This document shows, piece after piece, positions 19,987 through 63,293 of a stretch of 64,000 nucleotides of DNA. The notes under the pieces are model-generated. The model was not told the DNA's origin. It did not search any database and saw only the letters and a program-made list of their open reading frames with translations. The position numbers and the translations under genes were made by a program. Source of the DNA: Candidatus Kaiserbacteria bacterium (GTDB lineage: Bacteria; Patescibacteriota; Minisyncoccia; Phycocordibacterales; UBA918); contig JACQKD010000014.1 of NCBI GenBank assembly GCA_016204695.1, forward strand, positions 88,170 to 152,169. The letters are read 5' to 3'. Each line of letters starts with the position of its first letter. Positions within the stretch are counted from its first letter, which is position 1.

Positions 19987-20047
19987 GTGTAACTATAGCA
20001 GATCATATCCGCATCGGCCGCATACCGGATACCGTATGCACTTCCGT

Positions 20048-20075
20048 AGTGGACCCGAGGGGATTCGATCCTTAC
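20048..20075 (-). repeat. Degenerate duplicate of the tRNA-Ala(CGC) 3' end (integration scar)
   Basis: Reverse complement reads ...GTAAGGATCGAATCCCCTCGGGTCCA; the last 20 nt are identical to the 3' end of tRNA-Ala(CGC) 140 bp away. Confidence 0.6.
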
Positions 20076-20212
20076 AGGATCAGTATACCTTGCGGATACT
20101 TTTCTTCTCCGCCAGCCGGCGGATCGAAAAGATATCTCGCAAGGTCTGCGAACCCCCTGTATCCTACAAAAACATAGTCGCGTGACGCTTCGCGTCCCGC
20201 TCCTTGTTTTTG

Positions 20213-20284
20213 TGGACCCGAGGGGATTCGCACCCCTGACCCCTGCAATGCGAATGCAGTGCTCTACTCCTGAGCTACGGGCCC
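20213..20284 (-). tRNA. tRNA-Ala (anticodon CGC)
   Basis: GGGCCCG TA GCTC AGGAGTA GAGC A CTGCA TTCGCAT TGCAG GGGTC AGGGG TGCGAAT CCCCT CGGGTCC A; G3:U70 present. Confidence 0.9.
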
Positions 20285-20373
20285 GGCAACGCCTCATATG
20301 GTATCCGACAGGACGGGAAAAAGGAAGTTGCTGGCGGCATCTGTCGGTTTTGGCTACAATACACCATGCATCT

Positions 20374-20445
20374 CCTCCCGTCGTTCAACGGATAGGACGC
20401 GAGTTTCCGGAACTCGTAATGTCAGTTCGATTCTGGCCGGGAGGA
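20374..20445 (+). tRNA. tRNA-Arg (anticodon CCG)
   Basis: CCTCCCG TC GTTC AACGGATA GGAC G CGAGT TTCCGGA ACTCG TAAT GTCAG TTCGATT CTGGC CGGGAGG A. Confidence 0.8.
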
Positions 20446-20459
20446 CAAGAGCTTCATTG

Positions 20460-20530
20460 TGGACCTACGGGGAGTCGAACCCCGGCCTCCTCCATGCCAT
20501 GGAGGCGTTATACCGCTTAACTATAGGCCC
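20460..20530 (-). tRNA. tRNA-Ala (anticodon GGC)
   Basis: GGGCCTA TA GTTA AGCGGTA TAAC G CCTCC ATGGCAT GGAGG AGGC CGGGG TTCGACT CCCCG TAGGTCC A; G3:U70. Confidence 0.85.
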
Positions 20531-20570
20531 TCGAGTACGGGTCCGTGGAATTGTCTTCAACTCTACCTGA

Positions 20571-21116
20571 ATGCAATATCTCGCACAAGAACACCGCATG
20601 TTTGCAGAGGAAGCTGTCCACAGGACATACGAAAATACTTCACTTGTATCTTATACTGTGCCTAACGATCAGCATTTTGTGATGAATATCCTCTCATACT
20701 TCGACTTGAATAAGACGGCGGGCGGCTTCCGGGAACTCGGAGGCAGTGCGGCACTGGACTATAAGATGAAAGCCGAGCCGCCAGCCGCTCCGGTACCGGA
20801 AGCGCCGGAGACAGTAAAACCGCAAGCGCGCCCGATGCCCCTCTTTGAACAGCTCGTGCTGTACGCCGGCGTGATCATCGGCGTACTCTTCAGCTCAACA
20901 GTTAGACAATTCCAGGATGGAGCAGTCGCATTGCCAAAACTCGGTTTTGCCTCCGTACTGATTGCGGCGGTCGTGTCGCTGATCATCATCCCCATCGTGT
21001 TCGACAAGCTCAAGGTCAATCCCGACGCGCCGTTTATCATCCGCTTCGGCCTCTTCGTCCAACACGGCGCATTCTGGCACATCCTCCTTGTCGCGATCGG
21101 CAAGGCAATCGTTTGA
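20571..21116 (+). CDS. Hypothetical membrane protein
   Basis: C-terminal TM helices; start uncertain. Confidence 0.35.
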   Translation: MQYLAQEHRMFAEEAVHRTYENTSLVSYTVPNDQHFVMNILSYFDLNKTAGGFRELGGSAALDYKMKAEPPAAPVPEAPETVKPQARPMPLFEQLVLYAGVIIGVLFSSTVRQFQDGAVALPKLGFASVLIAAVVSLIIIPIVFDKLKVNPDAPFIIRFGLFVQHGAFWHILLVAIGKAIV

Positions 21117-21199
21117 ACCGGTACATAACGCCCGGGTAGCAAAGACAGAAAAAATATGTATAGTTGAAGGGAACAAAAGCAGTCCATAGGACTGTTTTT

Positions 21200-21272
21200 G
21201 GGCCCCTAGCTCATCTGGTAGAGCACCGGTTTTGCACTCCGGAGGCGAGCGGTTCGAGTCCGCTGGGGTCCA
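21200..21272 (+). tRNA. tRNA-Ala (anticodon TGC)
   Basis: GGGCCCC TA GCTC ATCTGGT AGAGC A CCGGT TTTGCAC TCCGG AGGCG AGCGG TTCGAGT CCGCT GGGGTCC A; G3:U70. Confidence 0.9.
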
Positions 21273-21292
21273 CATACGGTGTAGGATGTAGG

Positions 21293-23015
21293 GGTATCCG
21301 CTTAAGGCGGGACAATTGGGTGTCGGTCATGTACGCTGAAGGACTGAATTCCACCACGAGTTCAGTCACCCTTCAGAGGACCGACCGACATGAAATTTTG
21401 GGCCAAAAGTCTTCGCATTGTCAACGCTTTTTGTGACAACGCCGCGCAGAGCATCCGACACGTGGCGCATCAGACCGGGTTCTCCAAGAGCAGTGTGCAT
21501 CGCCTCAAACAGGCGATGGAACGCCGAGACCGCCACCCAGAGTCGTGGTTGTGGGAAACGGAAGAAGGCCACCGTTGGCTCCTCCGTCTGGTGGTCGCCG
21601 CCCTTTTTACGTTCGGTCTCACACGCGGTGTCGGGGCGGAAACCCTCAGCGAGTTTTTTGGCCGTCTGCGCCTCGAGGCACATATCGGGTCTTCGCCCAG
21701 CGCCTTGCGGAGGATGATGGAGGCGTTGGAGGCCGTGCTTCTGGAGACGGCAGGAACATGGGAGCACGAGGGGGTAGCTGCCGGAGAGATCAGACCAATC
21801 ATCGGCGCGGTGGACGAAACCTTCTTGGAACGCATGATGCTGGTGTTCATGGACCTTGCCAGTGGCTACTTGGTGGCTGAAGAGGTTGCCGCGGATCGGA
21901 GTTATGACACCTGGTACGCTGTGGTCACGGCACGCCTGGCGACGCTGGGGGTTGGTGTGAGGTACATGGTGAGTGACCGGGCCAAGGCACTGATCAAACT
22001 GGCGGACACGGGGCTGGCGTGCTTGAGCGTCCCGGACTTCTTCCACCTTCTCCATGACCTGACCAAGAGCTATTCGCTGGCCATTGTCAGTCGGCTGAGG
22101 CACGCGCAGCAGGCCTTGCAGCACGCGCAGGAGCGTCTTGCCGCGTGCCAAGAGGCTCATCCAGACGGTGCGGACGTGCAACACGTGCACGCCTTGGTGG
22201 AGGTGCATGAAGCGGAAGTCCAGCGCTGGCAAAACGTGCACAGTGACTACCGGCACCACCTCGAGCACCTGTCGCTCATCATGCATCCATGGCGCTTAGG
22301 AGGCTCGACACCCCAGACGTCACACGAAGTGGAAGACCTCTTACAGACAGAGATCGCGGCCCTGGAAACCTTGGTCGCAACGCAGGGGGTGCCCATCAAG
22401 AAGCACGCCTTGGAGAAGGTCCGCAAGCAGCTCGCGGGCGTCGCCGCCCTGGTGGACGTGTGGTGGCAGGAGGTGTGGCACGATGTGCAGTCTCAGGTTG
22501 CCCTGACGTCGCAGTGGCGGGGCTGGGTTGCAGAGTGTGTGCTGCCGCTCATGTATTGGCAGGAACAACTGGCGCGCACGCGTTGCCCACGACGCAAAGC
22601 CAAGCTCTTCGAGGCGTTGCAGACGGTTGAGGAGGCCATGGAAACGCATCCCCTCACCCGCCAGTTGGCCCCCGAGGTCCTGGCGGGGTGGAAAGTCTGG
22701 GCGGCCGAGCATGCCAGAGGCTTTCAGCGGGCCTCCTCGGCGGTTGAAGGGCGCAACGGTGCGCTGCCGCAGTTGCACCACAACCAGCGCGGCTTGCCCA
22801 AACGCCGCTACAAGGTGTGGACGGTGTTGCACAACTTCGACTGTCGTGCCGCGGACGGGAGCACGCCCGCCTCACGGTTTTTCCGGCACGAATTTCCGGA
22901 CCTCTTTGAGACGGTGCTCTCAAAAATCGATGACGTACCACGATCTCGTCAACGCCACCAGGCTCTGGCGATAAGTATTTGAAGCTATAGAATGTCCCGC
23001 TTTAAGCGGATACCC
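21293..23015 (+). mobile_element. Insertion sequence, ISL3-family-like (1.72 kb, single transposase, 22-bp terminal inverted repeats, 9-bp target-site duplication GGATGTAGG)
   Basis: IR-L GGTATCCGCTTAAGGCGGGACA (21293-21314) matches the reverse complement of IR-R (22993-23015) with one mismatch. Flanking direct repeat GGATGTAGG at 21284-21292 and 23016-23024. GC content is higher than surrounding DNA. Confidence 0.75.
21390..22982 (+). CDS. DDE transposase (ISL3-like)
   Basis: N-terminal HTH; catalytic-region signatures AVDETF...MDL, MVSDRAKAL...VPDFFHLLHDL (DrFHv-like) and AVEGRNGALPQLHHNQRGL (EGxN...RG). Confidence 0.7.
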   Translation: MKFWAKSLRIVNAFCDNAAQSIRHVAHQTGFSKSSVHRLKQAMERRDRHPESWLWETEEGHRWLLRLVVAALFTFGLTRGVGAETLSEFFGRLRLEAHIGSSPSALRRMMEALEAVLLETAGTWEHEGVAAGEIRPIIGAVDETFLERMMLVFMDLASGYLVAEEVAADRSYDTWYAVVTARLATLGVGVRYMVSDRAKALIKLADTGLACLSVPDFFHLLHDLTKSYSLAIVSRLRHAQQALQHAQERLAACQEAHPDGADVQHVHALVEVHEAEVQRWQNVHSDYRHHLEHLSLIMHPWRLGGSTPQTSHEVEDLLQTEIAALETLVATQGVPIKKHALEKVRKQLAGVAALVDVWWQEVWHDVQSQVALTSQWRGWVAECVLPLMYWQEQLARTRCPRRKAKLFEALQTVEEAMETHPLTRQLAPEVLAGWKVWAAEHARGFQRASSAVEGRNGALPQLHHNQRGLPKRRYKVWTVLHNFDCRAADGSTPASRFFRHEFPDLFETVLSKIDDVPRSRQRHQALAISI

Positions 23016-23036
23016 GGATGTAGGATGGTGTAGGTT
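23016..23036 (+). repeat. 24-bp (TGTAGG)x3-type site, copy 1 (split by the IS; other half at 21277-21292)
   Basis: Reconstituted pre-insertion site GGTGTAGGATGTAGGATGGTGTAGG. Related copies at 23770-23791 and 25417-25442. Confidence 0.6.
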
Positions 23037-23054
23037 TTTTGCTTTATATGGCTA

Positions 23055-23267
23055 TTGACTGGACAGACATACAAAAAGAATACAAAGGGCTCTGGGTGGC
23101 CGCTCAAGGAAGATGAACAGACTGTAGTAGGGAGCGGCAAGACTCTTGCGGAGGCCCTGGAAAAAGCGAAGGAAGCCGGATATGAGAAACCCATTGTTGT
23201 CTGCACGTCAGAAAGGGTCCTGCCGTTTATAGGCGGCCCCCAATTAGTGACGGGAAAAGAAGAGTAG
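23055..23267 (+). CDS. DUF2188-like small protein (TTG start)
   Basis: KGSGWPLKEDEQTVVGSGKTLAEALEKAKEAGYEKPIVV resembles the DUF2188 pattern (GWaVk.eG....tqaeAie.A...A). Confidence 0.45.
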   Translation: MTGQTYKKNTKGSGWPLKEDEQTVVGSGKTLAEALEKAKEAGYEKPIVVCTSERVLPFIGGPQLVTGKEE

Positions 23268-23312
23268 ATTGCGGGAGAGAAATAAGAGGCAGAGCAGGGA
23301 GAAAATGAAAGA

Positions 23313-23347
23313 GAGAAGCCGTCAGAATAAATCTCTGACGGCTTCTC
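23313..23347 (+). terminator. Terminator hairpin (14-bp stem, T-rich tail)
   Basis: GAGAAGCCGTCAGA / ATAAATC / TCTGACGGCTTCTC then TCTTTTCTC. Core GCCGTCAGA..TCTGACGGC is shared with the hairpin at 24963-24993. Confidence 0.6.
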
Positions 23348-23489
23348 TCTTTTCTCATGCTATAATCCGTTCAATTTGTACCTTCTAAACTGACGGGGAG
23401 AAAGTCCGGTGCCCTTTTTGATCTTCAGGGAGCTACGTCACTTTCCTCCCCCTCCATAGCCACCAACACTTGGTAGCTACGGCGGGGGC

Positions 23490-23705
23490 GTGAGTAAGGT
23501 CGACCGCTTCCCGAATTATCAACAAAAGTTCCGAATGTGTATGAGTATAAATAAAACTACTACTCAAACCGGGCAAAAAGCTCCTATTTCTGGTCAATAT
23601 CGGCCAGTTGGTACGCGCGACGAAATCACCCTCTCGAAGGGGGATCGTGTTCCACCGTACCAGAAGGAAGCCAAGAAGTTTGTTCTGGTTGATAAAACCA
23701 AATAG
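23490..23705 (+). CDS. YjzC-like small protein (hypothetical)
   Basis: GQKAPISGQYRPVGTRDEITLSKGDRVPP resembles the YjzC family pattern. Start may be the internal Met at 23544. Confidence 0.4.
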   Translation: MSKVDRFPNYQQKFRMCMSINKTTTQTGQKAPISGQYRPVGTRDEITLSKGDRVPPYQKEAKKFVLVDKTK

Positions 23706-23769
23706 CTTCTGACGCCCAGAATCCCCGTCAGTTTCGAGAGTACAACTCTTATTTTCTATAAGGCTCAGT

Positions 23770-23791
23770 GGGGATGTAGGTCGGTGTAGAC
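23770..23791 (+). repeat. 24-bp (TGTAGG)x3-type site, copy 2
   Basis: GGGGATGTAGGTCGGTGTAGAC lies 16 nt upstream of the SIR2-like ORF. Confidence 0.55.
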
Positions 23792-23806
23792 TTATACAAG
23801 TTCGTA

Positions 23807-24862
23807 TTGTTAAAAATTGGAAATCTGAATGAGGGTATGTCGAATCCACTTATAATTTTCGGAGCAGGCGCGTCCTTTGACTATTCTGCGTTTGGTAACA
23901 TCGCTCCACTTACTAATGATCTCGTCTCAGAACGTTTTCTTCATCACGATCTTTTAGAAAAATATCAAGGTGCCAACGATCTGTTATCTGATATGGTGCA
24001 CCAGGTCCATACACGTAATCGCGCATTTGAGACCGTCTTGAGCGAGATGAGAGAACGTGCGGCCCATTCTCCGCAACTTCTCAGTCAATTCGCAGCACTT
24101 GAATTTTATTTAAAAGCTCTTTTCAAGCGGATCTCAACTCCCTCGGACCTAACAAGAAGAGCGTATCAGGTAAACAATTATCGGATTATAAATAATCGTA
24201 TACATGCGTACTCTGGTGGTAGAGCAAATATTATATCTTTTAATTACGACACTCTCTTTGAGCATACTCTTGGTGCAAAAGCGCCAAAAAACATGCTGGA
24301 ATATATTTCTGGTGATATTAAAATCTTCAAACTGCATGGTTCCCACGACTGGCTTCATATACAACCAAGATCGCTAATGGGGGGTGATCCAAAGACAGAA
24401 GCAGAGGATATTGACTGGTACTTGGGTCGTCCAGATTTTATTGAGAATATTAGAGCTAGAAATGACACAAGTCCTTACCATGAACTAGAGCTCCACGAAC
24501 GTCCGAATAGAAATCGATATGCTTGGTTTCCAGCGATCGCTGTCCCTTTAAATAGTAAAGACAGATATGTTTGTCCTCCGAGGCATATCCAAGCGCTCGA
24601 ACAGGTACTGCCAAAGATCGATCGGGTTCTTATTATTGGTTGGAAAGCAGGAGATCAGCTTCTTCTTGAAATGCTTTCAAGACACTTGCCTAACTTCGGC
24701 TACAAGTTGCTTGTGATCTCAGGAACTGTAGATGGTGCGCAAAAGGTTGCCGAAGTTGTTCGAGATAAACTTACTGCCCATGCAGGAAAAATTGAGGCAC
24801 GTGGCGGTGGATTCTCAGATTTCGTAGGTAGCGATATAAGTCATAGCTTTTTTGCCGATTGA
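23807..24862 (+). CDS. SIR2-like (SIR2_2/DHS-like NAD-binding) domain protein, standalone; candidate anti-phage NADase
   Basis: IIFGAGASFD (GAGxS nucleotide-binding loop), ISFNYDTLFE, KLHGSHDW. AT-rich gene in a mobile island; track ORF starts at TTG 23807, first ATG at 23837. Confidence 0.7.
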   Translation: MLKIGNLNEGMSNPLIIFGAGASFDYSAFGNIAPLTNDLVSERFLHHDLLEKYQGANDLLSDMVHQVHTRNRAFETVLSEMRERAAHSPQLLSQFAALEFYLKALFKRISTPSDLTRRAYQVNNYRIINNRIHAYSGGRANIISFNYDTLFEHTLGAKAPKNMLEYISGDIKIFKLHGSHDWLHIQPRSLMGGDPKTEAEDIDWYLGRPDFIENIRARNDTSPYHELELHERPNRNRYAWFPAIAVPLNSKDRYVCPPRHIQALEQVLPKIDRVLIIGWKAGDQLLLEMLSRHLPNFGYKLLVISGTVDGAQKVAEVVRDKLTAHAGKIEARGGGFSDFVGSDISHSFFAD

Positions 24863-24962
24863 TTTATCATTACCAGGAGACACTTGACGACCTTGTATGC
24901 TTTGGTACTATATAGATACAAGTGGCTTCGGCCTCACCCCCGCAAGGGGGAGAAAATGCAGG

Positions 24963-24993
24963 AAAGCCGTCAGAACAAGTTTCTGACGGCTTT
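24963..24993. terminator. Bidirectional hairpin between convergent SIR2-like and MazF-like genes
   Basis: AAAGCCGTCAGAA / CAAGT / TTCTGACGGCTTT overlaps the last codons of the minus-strand toxin. A GC hairpin CCCCC GCAA GGGGG sits at 24934-24953. Confidence 0.5.
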
Positions 24994-25353
24994 TCTCAAT
25001 TCTGCGAATATTTCCTTGTCGAGAAAACCGACCTTTTCGACCAAACGCCGCGTATCGATCACTCGAAGTTGTGAGAGGAGCGCTTTCGCCTCCTTGTCTT
25101 GAACTATCCCCACAGAGATACGGAGTCGATGGGGATGCGGAGAGGTGGTTAGCGGGATAACCGCACAGGTTTCTGCTCCAAACGAGCGTATGATCACCAC
25201 CGGCCGAAGAAATGATTTACCGCTCCCGTCCTGTTCCGATCCGACATTCACGCCGAGTCGACACCACCATATTTCGCGAACCGTATAGAGACGAGATTCT
25301 TCACCATGGGTCTGCTTTTTCAGCGTATTCCACGTATCGAAATCTTTTGTCAT
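24970..25353 (-). CDS. MazF/PemK-family endoribonuclease toxin (type II TA), no adjacent canonical antitoxin
   Basis: REIWWCRLGVNVGSEQDGSGKSFLRPVVIIR...CAVIPLTTSPHP...IDTRRLVEKVGFLDKEIFAELRKAV aligns motif-for-motif with the MazF/NdoA family (GSEQxG, RPxxVI, xPxTT, IDxxRL). Confidence 0.75.
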   Translation of the reverse strand: MTKDFDTWNTLKKQTHGEESRLYTVREIWWCRLGVNVGSEQDGSGKSFLRPVVIIRSFGAETCAVIPLTTSPHPHRLRISVGIVQDKEAKALLSQLRVIDTRRLVEKVGFLDKEIFAELRKAVRNLF

Positions 25354-25402
25354 GAAGTTAGGGAAATCATAGCATGGACATTTTATGATGGTATGATGAG
25401 TC

Positions 25403-25549
25403 TTATCGAGAGGGGAGTGTAGGGTGTAGGTTGGTGTAGGACTTTTTCTCTAACAGCTTCTGGACGGGTGCCAGAAAATCCTTGTTTTCCGCCACAGCGG
25501 TTCGAACGTCGTCCAATAAGGCCCACAACTGTAGAAAATCCCGTCTCAT
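25403..25549 (-). CDS. Possible 48-aa ORF upstream of the MazF-like toxin (speculative antitoxin candidate; overlaps repeat site 3)
   Basis: ATG at the centre of the 42-nt palindrome encodes MRRDFLQLWALLDDVRTAVAENKDFLAPVQKLLEKKSYTNLHPTLPSR; ends 49 nt before the toxin start. Confidence 0.2.
   Translation of the reverse strand: MRRDFLQLWALLDDVRTAVAENKDFLAPVQKLLEKKSYTNLHPTLPSR
25417..25442 (+). repeat. 24-bp (TGTAGG)x3-type site, copy 3
   Basis: GTGTAGGGTGTAGGTTGGTGTAGGAC. Confidence 0.55.
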
Positions 25550-25570
25550 ATGAGACGGGATTTTCTACAG
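25529..25570. promoter_or_regulatory. Perfect 42-nt palindrome (21-nt arms, no spacer); operator or bidirectional terminator candidate
   Basis: CTGTAGAAAATCCCGTCTCATA|TGAGACGGGATTTTCTACAG. Confidence 0.5.
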
Positions 25571-25697
25571 TTGAAGGGGAGTTCGGAACGGACTCGAAGC
25601 TGTTGCGAGCTAGACTATGAGCGAAGCGAAATAGTATAGCCGCAACGGAGGAGTCGATTACCGCACCCGGGACAGGTCTGTTAAAATGGCAACCTGT

Positions 25698-26690
25698 ATG
25701 AAACTTCTGATTGTGACACATCTTGAGACGAGCAAGAAACCTGCTCCGCACACACCGGGATTGCGTACGCTTACCCGCGTGCAGGTGAAAAAGATCAAGG
25801 CGGTCGCGCCGAAGATGGAGATAATCGTGACCGGAGAGCCGGACGAAATCGAGCGGCATGCCGCCGATGCGAACATCATCGTGACGTCTCCGCGGACGCT
25901 CCCGCCGCTTGCACATGCAACACATCTCACATGGCTTCACTCGCTCTCGGCGGGCGTGGACCGCATCCTGACACCCGAGGTCAAGAAGTCATCGGTCATC
26001 GTCTCAAATTCTTCCGGCGTGCATGCGGTCCCGATTGCAGAGCATGTCATGGCATACCTGCTCATTTTCGCGCGCGGTTTTTTACATTCGCTTGAAAATC
26101 AAAAGCATCGTCTCTGGAAACGGGGCGAAGGCATGACCGAGCTGTATGAGAAGACCGTACTCATCGTCGGCATGGGGAATATCGGGAGCGAAGTCGCGAG
26201 ACGCGCGCATGCATTCGACTGTCATATCATCGCGCTCACGCGAAGCGGAAAGACCGACTCAAAATACGTTCACGAGATACACAAAGCATCGGCGCTTGAG
26301 CGCATGCTGAAGAAAGCCGATTTTGTTGTGAGTTGTCTGCCCGGCACACCGGAGACGCATCACATCTTTGACCGCAAAAAATTCGGCCTTATGAAGCCGA
26401 GCGCGTACTTCATCAACATCGGCCGCGGTTCGCTCGTGCATGAAAAAGACCTCATCGCCGCGCTCAAGAAAAAGCTCATCGCGGGCGCCGCGCTCGATGT
26501 CGCCGAGACCGAGCCGCTTCCCGCAGAAAGCCCGCTCTGGAACATGCAAAATGTCATCATCACTCCACACCATTCCGGCGCCTCCGAACGATACATGGAC
26601 CGCGCCATCGACCGCTTCGTGCTCAATCTCAAAGCATACCTGCGGAAGAAACCCCTCCCGAATCTCGTAGACAAAACCTTGGGGTACTGA
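25698..26690 (+). CDS. D-isomer-specific 2-hydroxyacid dehydrogenase (NAD-binding)
   Basis: GMGNIGSEVARRA (GxGxxG), INIGRGSLV, ALDVAETEP, ITPHHSG. Confidence 0.8.
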   Translation: MKLLIVTHLETSKKPAPHTPGLRTLTRVQVKKIKAVAPKMEIIVTGEPDEIERHAADANIIVTSPRTLPPLAHATHLTWLHSLSAGVDRILTPEVKKSSVIVSNSSGVHAVPIAEHVMAYLLIFARGFLHSLENQKHRLWKRGEGMTELYEKTVLIVGMGNIGSEVARRAHAFDCHIIALTRSGKTDSKYVHEIHKASALERMLKKADFVVSCLPGTPETHHIFDRKKFGLMKPSAYFINIGRGSLVHEKDLIAALKKKLIAGAALDVAETEPLPAESPLWNMQNVIITPHHSGASERYMDRAIDRFVLNLKAYLRKKPLPNLVDKTLGY

Positions 26691-59824: not shown

Positions 59825-60046
59825 ACTTGACACTGCAAGCCGCGAGCCACACCATCAATGCAATGAGTGTGGAAAATTCGAGCGAAGCAAAGGAGCAAGA
59901 AAATCAACCACCCCAGTGGCTTGCCACGGCGACGGTTGACTGCACAAAATAGGCCGTCTTGGAGGGAATACCGTGAAATATGTTGATTTTTTCATTGAAT
60001 TCACGGTTATTTGACAATAATAGTTAACTTTACTACACTTGACCAC

Positions 60047-60919
60047 ATGGCGAGAATACTCAATATATACAAAAAAATAATCGAACTGCGCGAACGTTAC
60101 TACAGGGTTTCGCCCGGCAAGGAATCGTTGCTCAAGATGATCATGGAAGCGGAAATTCCGGAACAGGTATACAACTCTAATGCTATCGAGAACAGCACAC
60201 TTTCTCTGGAAGAAACCGAAAAAATTCTACTCCAGATCGATCTCGACCGCTTTGTGTCCGAGCGCGAACTCTTTGAAGCTAAAAATCTCGCACGCGTGGT
60301 GGAATACATCGACAAACGAGCGAAGGAACAGGAGCTTACCGAGGAGGTCATTTTGTTTTTGCATAAGATGCTCATTTCCAATATCCGCGATGATATCGCC
60401 GGAAGATTCCGCACAGGAGAGGAGCGTGTACGGGTAGGCACGCACATCGCACCGCATGCGTCAGAAATTCCCGAGCTTATGAAAAAGATGCTCGCGGAAT
60501 ATAACGCTTCGAGTCATGAGCATATCGTGCGAAGAATCGCCAGATTGCATCTTGCCTTCGAGTACGCCCACCCGTTCGTTGACGGCAACGGCCGAATCGG
60601 TCGCGCTATCAATAATTACCTGCTCATCCGCGAAGGATATGTTCCTATCAACATCAAGTTTATCGATCGCGCCAGATACTATGACGCATTCAAAGAATTC
60701 CAAACGAACAATAAAACGGCGGTCATGGAAGAAATAGTCGGCCGCGCTCTTACTAACAGCTATCACAAGCGGCTGGCATATTTGGAACACAAAAAGATCG
60801 TATCGCTTTCCGAATATACCAAACAGAGTCGTCTTTCCCACTCAAACTCCCTTAACAAAGCAAAGCGTCAAACCATTGAAGCCTTTATAGAAAAAGGCAA
60901 TTGGAATATCGGAATATAA
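60047..60919 (+). CDS. Fic family protein
   Basis: Fic motif HPFVDGNGRIGRAINNYLL; AT-rich gene and upstream region. Confidence 0.8.
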   Translation: MARILNIYKKIIELRERYYRVSPGKESLLKMIMEAEIPEQVYNSNAIENSTLSLEETEKILLQIDLDRFVSERELFEAKNLARVVEYIDKRAKEQELTEEVILFLHKMLISNIRDDIAGRFRTGEERVRVGTHIAPHASEIPELMKKMLAEYNASSHEHIVRRIARLHLAFEYAHPFVDGNGRIGRAINNYLLIREGYVPINIKFIDRARYYDAFKEFQTNNKTAVMEEIVGRALTNSYHKRLAYLEHKKIVSLSEYTKQSRLSHSNSLNKAKRQTIEAFIEKGNWNIGI

Positions 60920-60932
60920 AATGAAATAATTT

Positions 60933-63293
60933 ATGCCCGATAAAAATCTTTCAGAACGCGATATTTGCACAAAATATATTACTCCGGCAGTGGTCGGAGC
61001 AGGTTGGAATGTACAAACCCAAATCCGCGAGGAAGTTACCTTTACCGCGGGTAGAATAAATGTCTACGGCAAAACAATAACCCGTGGCGAGAAAAAGCGA
61101 GCCGATTATATTTTGTATTACAAAAATAATTTTCCAATCGCGCTTATTGAAGCGAAGGATGCCAGTCATTCCGTAGGAGATGGTATGCAACAGGCACTCA
61201 GTTATGCGGAGTCTCTTGATATTCCATTTGTGTACAGCTCAAATGGCGAAGGTTTTTTAGAGCACGATCGGCTCACCGCATCCGGTCAAAAAGAGCATGA
61301 ACTACCCATCTCTGCTTTTCCAAGTCCCGCAGATCTCTATCAAAGATACAAAGAGCAGAAAGGATTAGTGCCAGAAGTCGAGGAGGCGGTTTTGCAGGAT
61401 TATTACGAAAATCCATCGGCACATCCACCGCGTTACTTCCAGCAAGTGGCGATCAATCGCACTGTTGAAGCGGTGGCGCGCGGCCAAAATCGCATTTTGC
61501 TTGTCATGGCTACCGGCACGGGCAAAACGTACACGGCATTTCAAATTATTTGGCGACTATGGAAAGCCCGCAAGAAAAAACGAATCCTATTTCTCGTTGA
61601 TCGTACCGCGCTTGCCGACCAAACGCTTTCCGGCGAGTTCCGCCATTTTGGCGAAGCGGTGACAAAAATTGACGACCCAAAGGTAAATCCGGCGTATGAA
61701 ATTTATGTCGCGCTCTATCAAGGACTCATGGGCGGGGAGGAAGCTGAAAAGTTTAAACAATTTTCAGCGGATTTTTTCGACCTCGTTATTGTAGACGAGT
61801 GTCATCGTGGTGCCGCGCGAGAAGATGCTTTGTGGCGTTCTGTTCTTGAATACTACAAGAGCGCAACACATATCGGCCTTACCGCCACGCCAAAAGTCGC
61901 TGACGATGCCGACAACTTTGAATACTTCGGCGCGCCTATTTACACCTATTCGCTCAAGCAAGGAATTGATGACGGTTACCTCGCGCCATATAAAGTCATC
62001 CGCTATCGTTTCAACAATGACGAATGGCGCCCGCCGCAAGGTTTTATAGATATGCACGGCCAAGAAGTGCCGGACGAAATATACACCGAATCGATGTTTG
62101 ACCGCTCCATTATCATCGAAGACCGCAATCGCGCGGTGGCAAAATGCGTGAGTGATTTTATGCGTGAGACGGATATATACCAAAAAGTTATCGTCTTTTG
62201 TGTAGACATAGCCCATGCCGAGCGGATGCGCAGGTTCCTGGTGAATGAATTCGCTGATGAAATAAAAAAGAATGCAAAATATGTTGTCAAAATCACCGGC
62301 GACGACTTCTATGGCAAACTGGAAATTGAAAACTTTATAAATCCGGAGTCAAAGTACCCGGTCATTGCCACCACCTCAAAACTGCTTTCCACCGGAGTGG
62401 ATACCCAGACGGTCAAGCTCATTGTGCTCGACGCGCCGATGAATTCCATGACGGAGTTTAAACAGGTCATCGGCCGGGGTACGCGTATCAACGAGCAGTT
62501 TGGCAAATACTATTTCACCATCATGGATTTCCGCAATGTCACGCGCCTGTTTGCGGACGCGGACTTTGACGGCGACCCGGTAGAAAGTTACGAAAAAGAC
62601 GGCGCCGAGCCGCTCGCGATAAAAGAAAAGATAGAACAAGAAACCCGTAGCGAAGCCGAGTTGCAGAAAATAAATCCGCAGGAAGAAATTTTAATCGACG
62701 GCACCGAAGCCGCGCCAAAGCCAAAGAAAATCCATATCAAAGATGGCGTCACGTTTGACCCGATCCAAAAACTCATTCAGTACATTGACCCCAAAACCGG
62801 AAAGCTCATTACCGCCTCGCTTCAAGACTTCAGCAAGCAGACCATCCAAGGCGTATATGCTTCACTTGAAGATTTTCTCAATCGCTGGAATGCTACCGAA
62901 CGCAAAGACGCCATCATTTCCGAGCTTGCCGATATGGGTATCGTCTTTGATGAATTGCAAAAAGAAGTGGGCAAAGACCTTGATGTGTTTGACCTTGTCC
63001 TCCATGTCGCCTACGGCAAAAAACCCCTGACCCGAAGCGAGCGATTGAAAAAAGTCCGCGCAAGCGACTATTTTGCCAAATATGAAGGCAGGGCGCGGGA
63101 AATCATTGACCATCTCCTCGACAAGTACGCCGCAAGCGGCATCACTGCCATAGACGACATCGGCGACCTGCAAGTGTCTCCGTTTACCGCCTACGGCACG
63201 CCGTTTGAAATCGTGGAGGAAATCTTCGGCGGCCGTGAAAAATATCTGCAAGTGGTGCGCCACATAGAAACCGTGTTATATACCGCCCAATAA
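60933..63293 (+). CDS. hsdR: Type I restriction enzyme R subunit (short form)
   Basis: N-terminal PD-(D/E)xK nuclease region (ALIEAKD), helicase motif I MATGTGKT, motif II VIVDECHRG. Confidence 0.8.
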   Translation: MPDKNLSERDICTKYITPAVVGAGWNVQTQIREEVTFTAGRINVYGKTITRGEKKRADYILYYKNNFPIALIEAKDASHSVGDGMQQALSYAESLDIPFVYSSNGEGFLEHDRLTASGQKEHELPISAFPSPADLYQRYKEQKGLVPEVEEAVLQDYYENPSAHPPRYFQQVAINRTVEAVARGQNRILLVMATGTGKTYTAFQIIWRLWKARKKKRILFLVDRTALADQTLSGEFRHFGEAVTKIDDPKVNPAYEIYVALYQGLMGGEEAEKFKQFSADFFDLVIVDECHRGAAREDALWRSVLEYYKSATHIGLTATPKVADDADNFEYFGAPIYTYSLKQGIDDGYLAPYKVIRYRFNNDEWRPPQGFIDMHGQEVPDEIYTESMFDRSIIIEDRNRAVAKCVSDFMRETDIYQKVIVFCVDIAHAERMRRFLVNEFADEIKKNAKYVVKITGDDFYGKLEIENFINPESKYPVIATTSKLLSTGVDTQTVKLIVLDAPMNSMTEFKQVIGRGTRINEQFGKYYFTIMDFRNVTRLFADADFDGDPVESYEKDGAEPLAIKEKIEQETRSEAELQKINPQEEILIDGTEAAPKPKKIHIKDGVTFDPIQKLIQYIDPKTGKLITASLQDFSKQTIQGVYASLEDFLNRWNATERKDAIISELADMGIVFDELQKEVGKDLDVFDLVLHVAYGKKPLTRSERLKKVRASDYFAKYEGRAREIIDHLLDKYAASGITAIDDIGDLQVSPFTAYGTPFEIVEEIFGGREKYLQVVRHIETVLYTAQ

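Follow-up and report, generated by a model that had tools for sequence, protein, structure and literature searches.

A short array of TGTAGG hexamers that occurs three times in a low-GC island of a Candidatus Kaiserbacteria metagenome-assembled genome (MAG) is, judged by its sequence, one arm of an iteron-type replication origin, a known kind of element that is present here in an unusual orphan and triplicated state. We analyzed 64,000 nucleotides of the 152,889-bp contig JACQKD010000014.1 (this whole stretch is the window below), in which the island begins beside a tRNA-Ala(TGC) gene and carries SIR2-like and MazF-like genes. An earlier, sequence-only reading of this DNA had likened the three sites to recombination sites that delimit gene cassettes or to a shared operator. 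The idea of a cassette boundary is not borne out, since in other genomes such an array forms half of an origin-type inverted repeat beside replication genes. Our own proposal, which we regard as about evenly balanced between right and wrong, is that the sites are orphan half-origins left behind by integrative elements at tRNA-Ala(TGC).

Matches to TGTAGGNNNNTGTAG occur at positions 23019, 23775, and 25425 of the window, all on the + strand, and 100 shuffles of the window give an expectation of 0; the three repeated TGTAGG sites of the sequence-only reading are therefore real. The arrays share the layout TGTAGG-N-TGTAGG-NNGG-TGTAG followed by a T-run, which within the window is confined to the island. 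No further clusters of TGTAG units of such sequence were found in the 64 kb outside the three sites, and the motif is thus absent from the part of the window outside the island rather than widespread in core regions. Site 3 (25416 to 25447, + strand) is complete and reads AG-TGTAGG-G-TGTAGG-TTGG-TGTAGG-AC-TTTTT, with three perfect hexamers across 25418-25440. Site 2 (23770 to 23791, + strand) is degenerate and 65% identical to site 1; it consists of GTGGGGA (a decayed unit), TGTAGG, TCGG, and TGTAGA, without a T-run, and its two retained units, TGTAGG and TGTAGA, lie 4 nt apart at 23775-23790. The flanks of the three arrays are mutually unrelated.

Site 1 is split by an insertion sequence (IS) of 1,724 bp (21292 to 23015, + strand), as had been claimed. 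The left part of the site (21278 to 21292, + strand) reads GG-TGTAGG-A-TGTAGG and corresponds to the original units 1 and 2, while the right part (23016 to 23041, + strand) holds a duplicated unit 2, ATGG, unit 3 (TGTAGG), and a T6 run. The IS has terminal inverted repeats of 23 nt (21292-21314 and 22993-23015) and a single transposase open reading frame (ORF; 21390-22982) with helix-turn-helix (HTH) and DUF6399 domains; its target duplication of 8-9 bp, GGATGTAG(G), stands at 21284-21292 and again at 23016-23024. Excision in silico of the IS together with one duplicate joins the left part to 23025-23041 and restores a full array, ACGG-TGTAGG-A-TGTAGG-ATGG-TGTAGG-TTTTTT, which begins 6 nt past the 3′ end of tRNA-Ala(TGC). 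Two independent short-read assemblies have the IS at an identical position, and the insertion in site 1 is the sole insertion of this IS on record.

To find the array elsewhere, we scanned one genome per species, and in addition metagenome contigs, with the exact pattern TGTAGGNTGTAGGNNGGTGTAG in a single pass, which diverged arrays escape; the two scans returned 8 and 40 matches, respectively. About half of the metagenome matches and both matches in Oscillatoria are long GGTGTAG tandem satellites of cyanobacteria and marine eukaryote-like contigs; these were discarded, as were two eukaryote-looking loci (L033 and L042; loci are designated by L numbers throughout). The isolated arrays that remain are found in Blastocatellia, Terriglobia, Actinomycetes, Gracilibacteraceae, a Bathyarchaeia MAG, and unassigned metagenome contigs, and their agreement exceeds the search pattern: the free positions are occupied by G and GT, and a T-run stands behind the last unit. 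Inspection of the 130 nt downstream revealed, for at least 12 distinct loci, a mirrored array reading CTACAC-N3-4-CCTACA-C-CCTACAC; the two arrays are the arms of an inverted repeat of ~100 bp. The spacer between the arms measures 55-58 nt in nine independent loci and is mostly AT-rich; it starts with G(G)TTTT(T), finishes with GAAAAA(C), and often contains TATATA. Opposed arms of at least two iterons around an AT-rich center are present in L003, L006, L008, L014, L016, L019, L024, and L027. The hexamers are conserved in both arms and the linkers between them are non-complementary across the arms, a combination that points to recognition by a protein instead of an RNA stem; an RNA stem-loop was ruled out on the same ground. 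A miniature inverted-repeat transposable element was likewise ruled out, because each locus has the repeat just once and its association with helicase genes extends across phyla. In complete elements, the single inverted repeat is not accompanied by lone arrays, and the only other lone bacterial array found is that of L009. In L010 and L021, the TGTAGG array is followed by an AT-rich stretch and then by three or four TGTCAYA repeats, not by the mirrored arm; this arrangement, beside a D5-type helicase gene, may be a hybrid origin. A scan of viral contigs for the triple motif gave 0 matches, blastn of the complete inverted repeat against plasmids and phages gave chance fragments only, and a full-text literature search for the motif returned only human polymerase chain reaction primers. 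The TGTAGG origin class thus appears to be undescribed in the literature and databases searched.

The sites in the window were then scored with a matrix made solely from the partner arms, which the search pattern had never selected, so that circularity is avoided. Site 3 scores 31.0 bits, the top of the window, and the rebuilt site 1 scores 29.5 bits, against a window background with a mean of -25 and a standard deviation of 8. Site 2 scores 8.6 bits, and the best unrelated match in the window scores 11.8 bits. Of the three copies in the sequence-only reading, site 2 is accordingly a weak one. Sites 1 and 3 have the same iteron sequence and spacing as the arms of the origin-type inverted repeats and are, at the level of sequence, true origin-arm matches, T-run included, while site 2 is best described as a decayed copy. 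Together, the three sites represent one repeated, non-random, foreign element that probably binds a protein. An Rfam search of 20000-26500 at E ≤ 1 found tRNAs and hairpin noise only, and nothing at the sites.

The genes beside the complete inverted repeats belong to replication. An all-against-all BLAST comparison of the flanking ORFs yielded one dominant cluster, represented in 10 loci, of primase-helicases with D5_N and DUF5906 domains (helicase superfamily 3, SF3), some of which have a Pox_D5 C-terminal domain; the N-terminal part carries DUF3854 (L003), Prim-Pol plus PriCT_1 (L008), or none of these (L016). The stop codon of the D5_N/SF3 helicase gene lies 6-270 nt upstream of the inverted repeat in at least eight distinct loci. 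An integrase gene is near the inverted repeat in three loci; in L003 and L006, it encodes a tyrosine integrase, abuts a tRNA-Arg gene, and is accompanied by a small ORF of DNA-binding type (HTH_17 in L003). L016, a contig of 4.9 kb, contains little besides integrase, helicase, and inverted repeat. In Bathyarchaeia-type loci, the repeat stands behind a DnaG-like primase gene, itself preceded by an AAA_25 helicase gene (L007 and L025), or behind a DUF3987 gene (L035). As far as gene content can tell, the origin module is retained while the helicase family is swapped (D5/SF3, AAA_25, or DUF3987). The replication genes of L007/L025 and L035 are non-homologous, and the small genes that flank them are common to these loci.

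Were the helicase to recognize the repeat as its origin, the same layout with other units would be expected beside related helicases. We drew 80 helicase relatives from viral contigs through an alignment of the C-terminal halves of the helicases, representing 54 unique loci. A strong inverted repeat lies within 200 nt past the stop codon in 28 of the 54, compared with 0/54 for shuffled and 0/54 for coding controls. The clear cases consist of paired direct repeats mirrored across 58-72 nt, with units that differ by lineage: GGCGGACGCGT (L068), GTGAACGAT (L076), GGTGAAGG (L082), GACGGGTTT (L146), and AGTGAATAGT (L121). Some loci have near-variants of the TGTAGG hexamer at the same position, namely the GGTGAAGG of L082, CATGTAGG-ATGTATG followed by a T-run in L145, and a single GTGTAGGGTT...AACCCTACAC pair in L147; these variants suggest a graded family of specificities.

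This arrangement resembles the origins of Staphylococcus aureus pathogenicity islands (SaPIs), members of the phage-inducible chromosomal islands (PICIs), whose self-loading SF3 helicase is of the Pri-Rep kind. A SaPI origin has 6-12 penta- or hexanucleotide iterons directly downstream of rep, opposed on the two sides of an AT-rich center, and a self-loading helicase binds the iterons through its C-terminal winged-helix domain (PMC9371898). The TGTAGG inverted repeats of L003, L008, L014, L016, and others fit this layout point by point, with hexanucleotide iterons after a helicase ORF, opposed halves, an AT-rich center, a winged-helix domain at the C terminus of the helicase, and an integrative element as carrier. 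They differ in the iteron itself, TGTAGG, and in the hosts: in place of staphylococci, these are Acidobacteriota, Actinomycetes, an archaeal MAG, and metagenome organisms of unknown identity. The sites of the window differ further in being single arms, without a helicase and without an AT-rich center and second arm. By analogy, the TGTAGG inverted repeat would be an iteron origin of the SaPI/PICI type, from which we infer its binding and firing. Other systems share parts of this design. The alpha protein of the phage-plasmid P4 unites primase, SF3 helicase, and a C-terminal origin-binding domain, the last of which binds short repeated octamers; P4 integrates at a tRNA gene by means of an integrase and has a second repeat-bearing cis site, crr, away from ori. 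The P4 repeats (TGTTCACC) are, however, otherwise arranged, and crr acts with a complete ori on the same replicon, whereas the arrays in the window have none. SV40 large T antigen and papillomavirus E1 are SF3 helicases as well, and in their origins inverted sets of short repeats flank the melting regions, each half-origin directing the assembly of one member of a double hexamer. SV40 and papillomaviruses infect eukaryotes and have other repeats and other DNA-binding domains, and the analogy extends to layout only.

In a complete element, two arrays of three TGTAGG hexamers with start-to-start spacings of 7 and 10 nt face each other across the spacer, and this unit directly follows the gene of a self-loading replicative helicase. 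On the model of SaPI Rep, we propose that the helicase would bind the hexamers through its C-terminal winged-helix domain, that one hexamer ring would load per side, and that the spacer would melt. Integrative elements of the TGTAGG class would have entered the tRNA-Ala hotspot and would subsequently have been rearranged and eroded in a small, deletion-prone genome, leaving cargo (the SIR2-like, DUF5678-like, and YjzC-like genes) together with half-origins. A lone half-origin is probably unable to fire; it may bind a matching helicase from another element. In the window, only single arrays and the start of the spacer survive, all pointing away from tRNA-Ala(TGC). The proposal is supported by the signs of decay in the island and by the finding, both described below, that the motif does not accompany homologues of the SIR2-like or MazF-like genes.

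Several observations weigh against half-origins left by erosion. No mirrored CTACA cluster lies within 200 nt of the sites or anywhere in the island, that is, no two-sided origin was found there. A tblastn search of the 64 kb with the ORFs that flank the related loci, helicases and integrases included, returned nothing at E ≤ 1e-3, and no complete TGTAGG origin has been shown in any Patescibacteria genome. Moreover, the three arrays keep the same arm and orientation, the break always falls within the spacer, and the hexamers of sites 1 and 3 are perfect although their flanks have lost all similarity; such regularity is not what three separate elements under neutral erosion should leave behind. 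Three lone arrays within 4 kb are also unusual, since complete elements carry no extra ones, and the binding of the hexamers by any protein is argued from analogy. The position of two arrays 13 and 46 nt upstream of + strand gene starts would suit a regulatory role as well. The regularity of the remnants thus leaves room for a regulatory function or for a decoy or half-origin that is still at work.

In the first of these cases, a DNA-binding protein on the three arrays, whether a regulator of the host or the island, or the winged-helix domain of an incoming element's helicase, would set transcription of the DUF5678-like and SIR2-like genes on the + strand and of the MazF-like gene on the minus strand. 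The distances agree with those in the sequence-only reading: 13 nt separate the end of site 1 from the start codon of the DUF5678-like gene (ATG at 23048), 46 nt separate the end of site 2 from that of the SIR2-like gene (ATG at 23837), and site 3 starts 64 nt upstream of the minus-strand MazF-like start at 25353, with a promoter-like match for the MazF-like gene situated between site 3 and the gene. The perfect retention of the hexamers of sites 1 and 3 amid unrelated flanks would also fit an operator. The arrays do not, however, travel with these genes. The TGTAGG motif is missing from three unrelated contexts of SIR2 homologues in other Patescibacteria, and the locus of the closest MazF homologue (L061, 91% identical) has no TGTAGG cluster anywhere; DNA similarity to L061 spans from ~25 nt upstream of the MazF ATG to ~130 nt past the stop codon, and the L061 locus therefore gives no sign of a motif kept upstream of orthologous toxin genes, as in a toxin-antitoxin operator. 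The same four comparisons contradict the claim that the site-bracketed modules are units. Furthermore, there is no + strand gene downstream of site 3 before a strong terminator, site 1 is disrupted by the IS and its gene is a pseudogene, the island ORFs (transposase, DUF5678-, YjzC-, SIR2-, and MazF-like genes) include no candidate regulator gene, and in other genomes the motif accompanies replication genes instead of the cargo genes of the island. We consider a shared operator unlikely on balance. In the second case, the arrays would be kept as binding places for the helicase of a TGTAGG-type element, whether invading or resident, and this helicase would either be soaked up or load as single hexamer rings, amplifying the defense genes of the island in place. 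This would account for three arrays of one specificity class within 4 kb beside defense-type cargo (weak PADLOC SIR2 matches), for the lack of extra lone arrays in complete elements, and for the single orientation and the retention in the arrays of the T-run that opens the spacer of real origins. There are precedents for such loci. The incA locus of P1 is a plasmid iteron locus outside the origin that controls the initiator in trans. The crtS site of Vibrio cholerae binds the initiator RctB outside the origin and regulates replication in trans (PMC11711613). Like the arrays, these are initiator-binding repeats and not origins; they share a replicon or cell with their initiator and origin, whereas the arrays in the window are candidate binding loci for which no initiator is known. 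The IS in site 1 and the degeneration of site 2 contradict selection for binding, a cognate helicase is not known in this or any Patescibacteria genome, and the idea is inference throughout, so that we rate a working decoy as quite improbable. A stronger version, which we judge more doubtful again, would make the arrays deliberate origin mimics in a defense islet that capture the self-loading helicase of an incoming TGTAGG-type element. If this were true, the capture would either starve the origin of the invader or set off over-replication at the islet that raises the dose of the SIR2-like and MazF-like genes, and the mimics would amount to a defense or sensor made from the invader's own origin sequence.

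That a recombinase inserts or exchanges gene modules at the arrays was suggested by three sites in direct orientation that bracket gene groups, by the adjoining tRNA gene, and by the IS that landed in one site; same-orientation repeated sites likewise separate modules of single-gene size in integrons. An attC site is an imperfect palindrome that folds as a single strand, whereas the unit in the window is three direct hexamers with no fold, and the description as attC-like finds no support in the folding of 101-nt DNA segments, for which hairpin z scores against shuffles are -0.2, -1.3, and -0.4 at the three sites and -8.8 for a complete inverted repeat. The tyrosine integrases of L003, L006, and L016 found no tblastn match in the 64 kb, and thus no cognate recombinase came to light in a check that left serine recombinases and IntI unsearched; no intI or attI was identified in the window, and no search was aimed at intI. 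The 56-nt spacer between the arms is far too long for the core site of a tyrosine or serine recombinase. In addition, the direct repeat expected from the tRNA end is missing at the far border, the integrase-proximal junction of complete elements is at the tRNA, 1.5 kb from the repeat, and the modules are not conserved as units. Together, these results make recombination sites of a cassette system very unlikely. An artefact of chance or of simple repeats, in which heptamer slippage would have produced arrays of no common origin or function, recalls the GGTGTAG tandem satellites that make up about half of the database matches, in cyanobacterial and marine metagenome contigs. Against it stand the expectation of zero in the window, the irregular 7- and 10-nt spacing and the T-run that are common to independent partner arms, and the occurrence of three copies with unrelated flanks; we find this explanation scarcely credible.

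Reading the sites as half-origins replaces the unsupported idea of a new cassette system in a genome of the candidate phyla radiation (Patescibacteria) with a concrete, testable identity for the motif. The comparison further reveals a class of origins that use a single hexamer, TGTAGG, and hardly vary in their ~100-bp geometry, in integrative elements of Acidobacteriota and Actinomycetes and in archaeal MAG contigs. A constant repeat combined with a changing helicase family offers a handle for finding such elements and for asking what reads the repeat. The mobile elements of Patescibacteria are poorly known, and the three lone arrays would be either a fossil record of repeated visits by elements of this class or a case of origin halves put to new use, both of which would be informative.

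The island itself starts 6 nt 3′ of tRNA-Ala(TGC) (21200 to 21273, + strand; ARAGORN, with an Rfam tRNA score of 59 bits), and its GC content is 0.42-0.49 at 23000-25400 compared with ~0.54 in the flanks. A low-GC island at a tRNA gene, as previously read from the sequence, is thereby confirmed, in the form of foreign DNA of deviant composition from the tRNA 3′ end onward. No direct repeat of the tRNA 3′ end was found at the distal border with up to 3 mismatches allowed; the only other match at this stringency, at 20211, belongs to the end of another tRNA-Ala gene. An empty site could not be recognized among the closest relatives of the dehydrogenase gene at the far side (78-67% identical), which have neither shared upstream synteny nor a tRNA-Ala gene. 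The tRNA gene belongs to a cluster of four at 20212-21273 (Ala-CGC, Arg-CCG, Ala-GGC, and Ala-TGC), and a 181-aa ORF without a family match lies between the third and fourth (20571-21116).

The first gene behind site 1 (23048 to 23267, + strand) had been taken for DUF2188-like; it is instead a frameshifted DUF5678-like gene and a probable pseudogene. The unrepaired ORF scores 21.5 bits, under the Pfam cut-off; after repair, the match covers profile positions 2-43 of 49 and reaches 38.1 bits. The frameshift, near 23098-23110, is the same in two independent assemblies and is therefore not an assembly error. On the minus strand, a 59-nt relic, T1 (23297 to 23355), preserves ~17 terminal codons of a second MazF-like gene along with its 3′ hairpin; it is ~85% identical to 24948-25003 and implies that this second gene was truncated here. 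The IS in site 1, the frameshift, and this MazF-like gene cut to its tail are signs of decay in the island. T1 and site 2 are 456 nt apart, and the hairpin T2 and site 3 are 458 nt apart, as if a block of hairpin, MazF-like gene, and site had been duplicated in tandem; this was ruled out because the interiors have no similarity beyond the last ~17 codons. The segment from 23376 to 23745 (+ strand) contains a YjzC-like ORF (23490-23705) bracketed by a 24-nt inverted repeat (23376-23399 and 23722-23745, 88% complementary), which may mark a small inserted element or form a long-range hairpin.

The SIR2-like gene (23837 to 24862, + strand), which is island cargo, has weak matches to SIR2_2 and to PADLOC SIR2. 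On a Taylorbacteria-type contig (L050-L053), a TGTAGG-TGT-TGTAGG sequence occurs inside a 54-aa ORF ~2.4 kb downstream of a SIR2 homologue; this two-unit repeat with 9-nt spacing does not match the array and is probably coincidental. The MazF/PemK-like module (24882 to 25374, minus strand) comprises the intact gene at 24970-25353 and its own 3′ hairpin T2 at 24955-25001, and it is kept as a block in the related genome of L061, with 86% identity over 24883-25374. The 127-aa MazF/PemK-like protein shows unusual conservation, with relatives of 65-91% identity across Patescibacteria in more than 100 clusters, and the gene in L061 (10001-10384) stands alone after a coaD-like gene, among housekeeping genes and without an obvious antitoxin gene; the MazF-like gene looks solitary and near-core, not like one of a typical mobile toxin-antitoxin pair. 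A 48-aa minus-strand ORF at 25403-25549 was considered as a small antitoxin gene and rejected, as no family matches it and its start falls within a palindrome. This perfect 48-nt palindrome (25526 to 25573), between site 3 and the 2-hydroxyacid dehydrogenase gene (25686-26690), forms the right edge of the low-GC region and is likely a bidirectional terminator. It holds TGTAGAAAAT...ATTTTCTACA, that is, one TGTAG unit per side, and a public short-read assembly breaks precisely at its center. Far from the island, at the right end of the window, a Fic/DOC gene followed by a type I restriction HsdR gene (60011-63293) forms a second defense-type patch.

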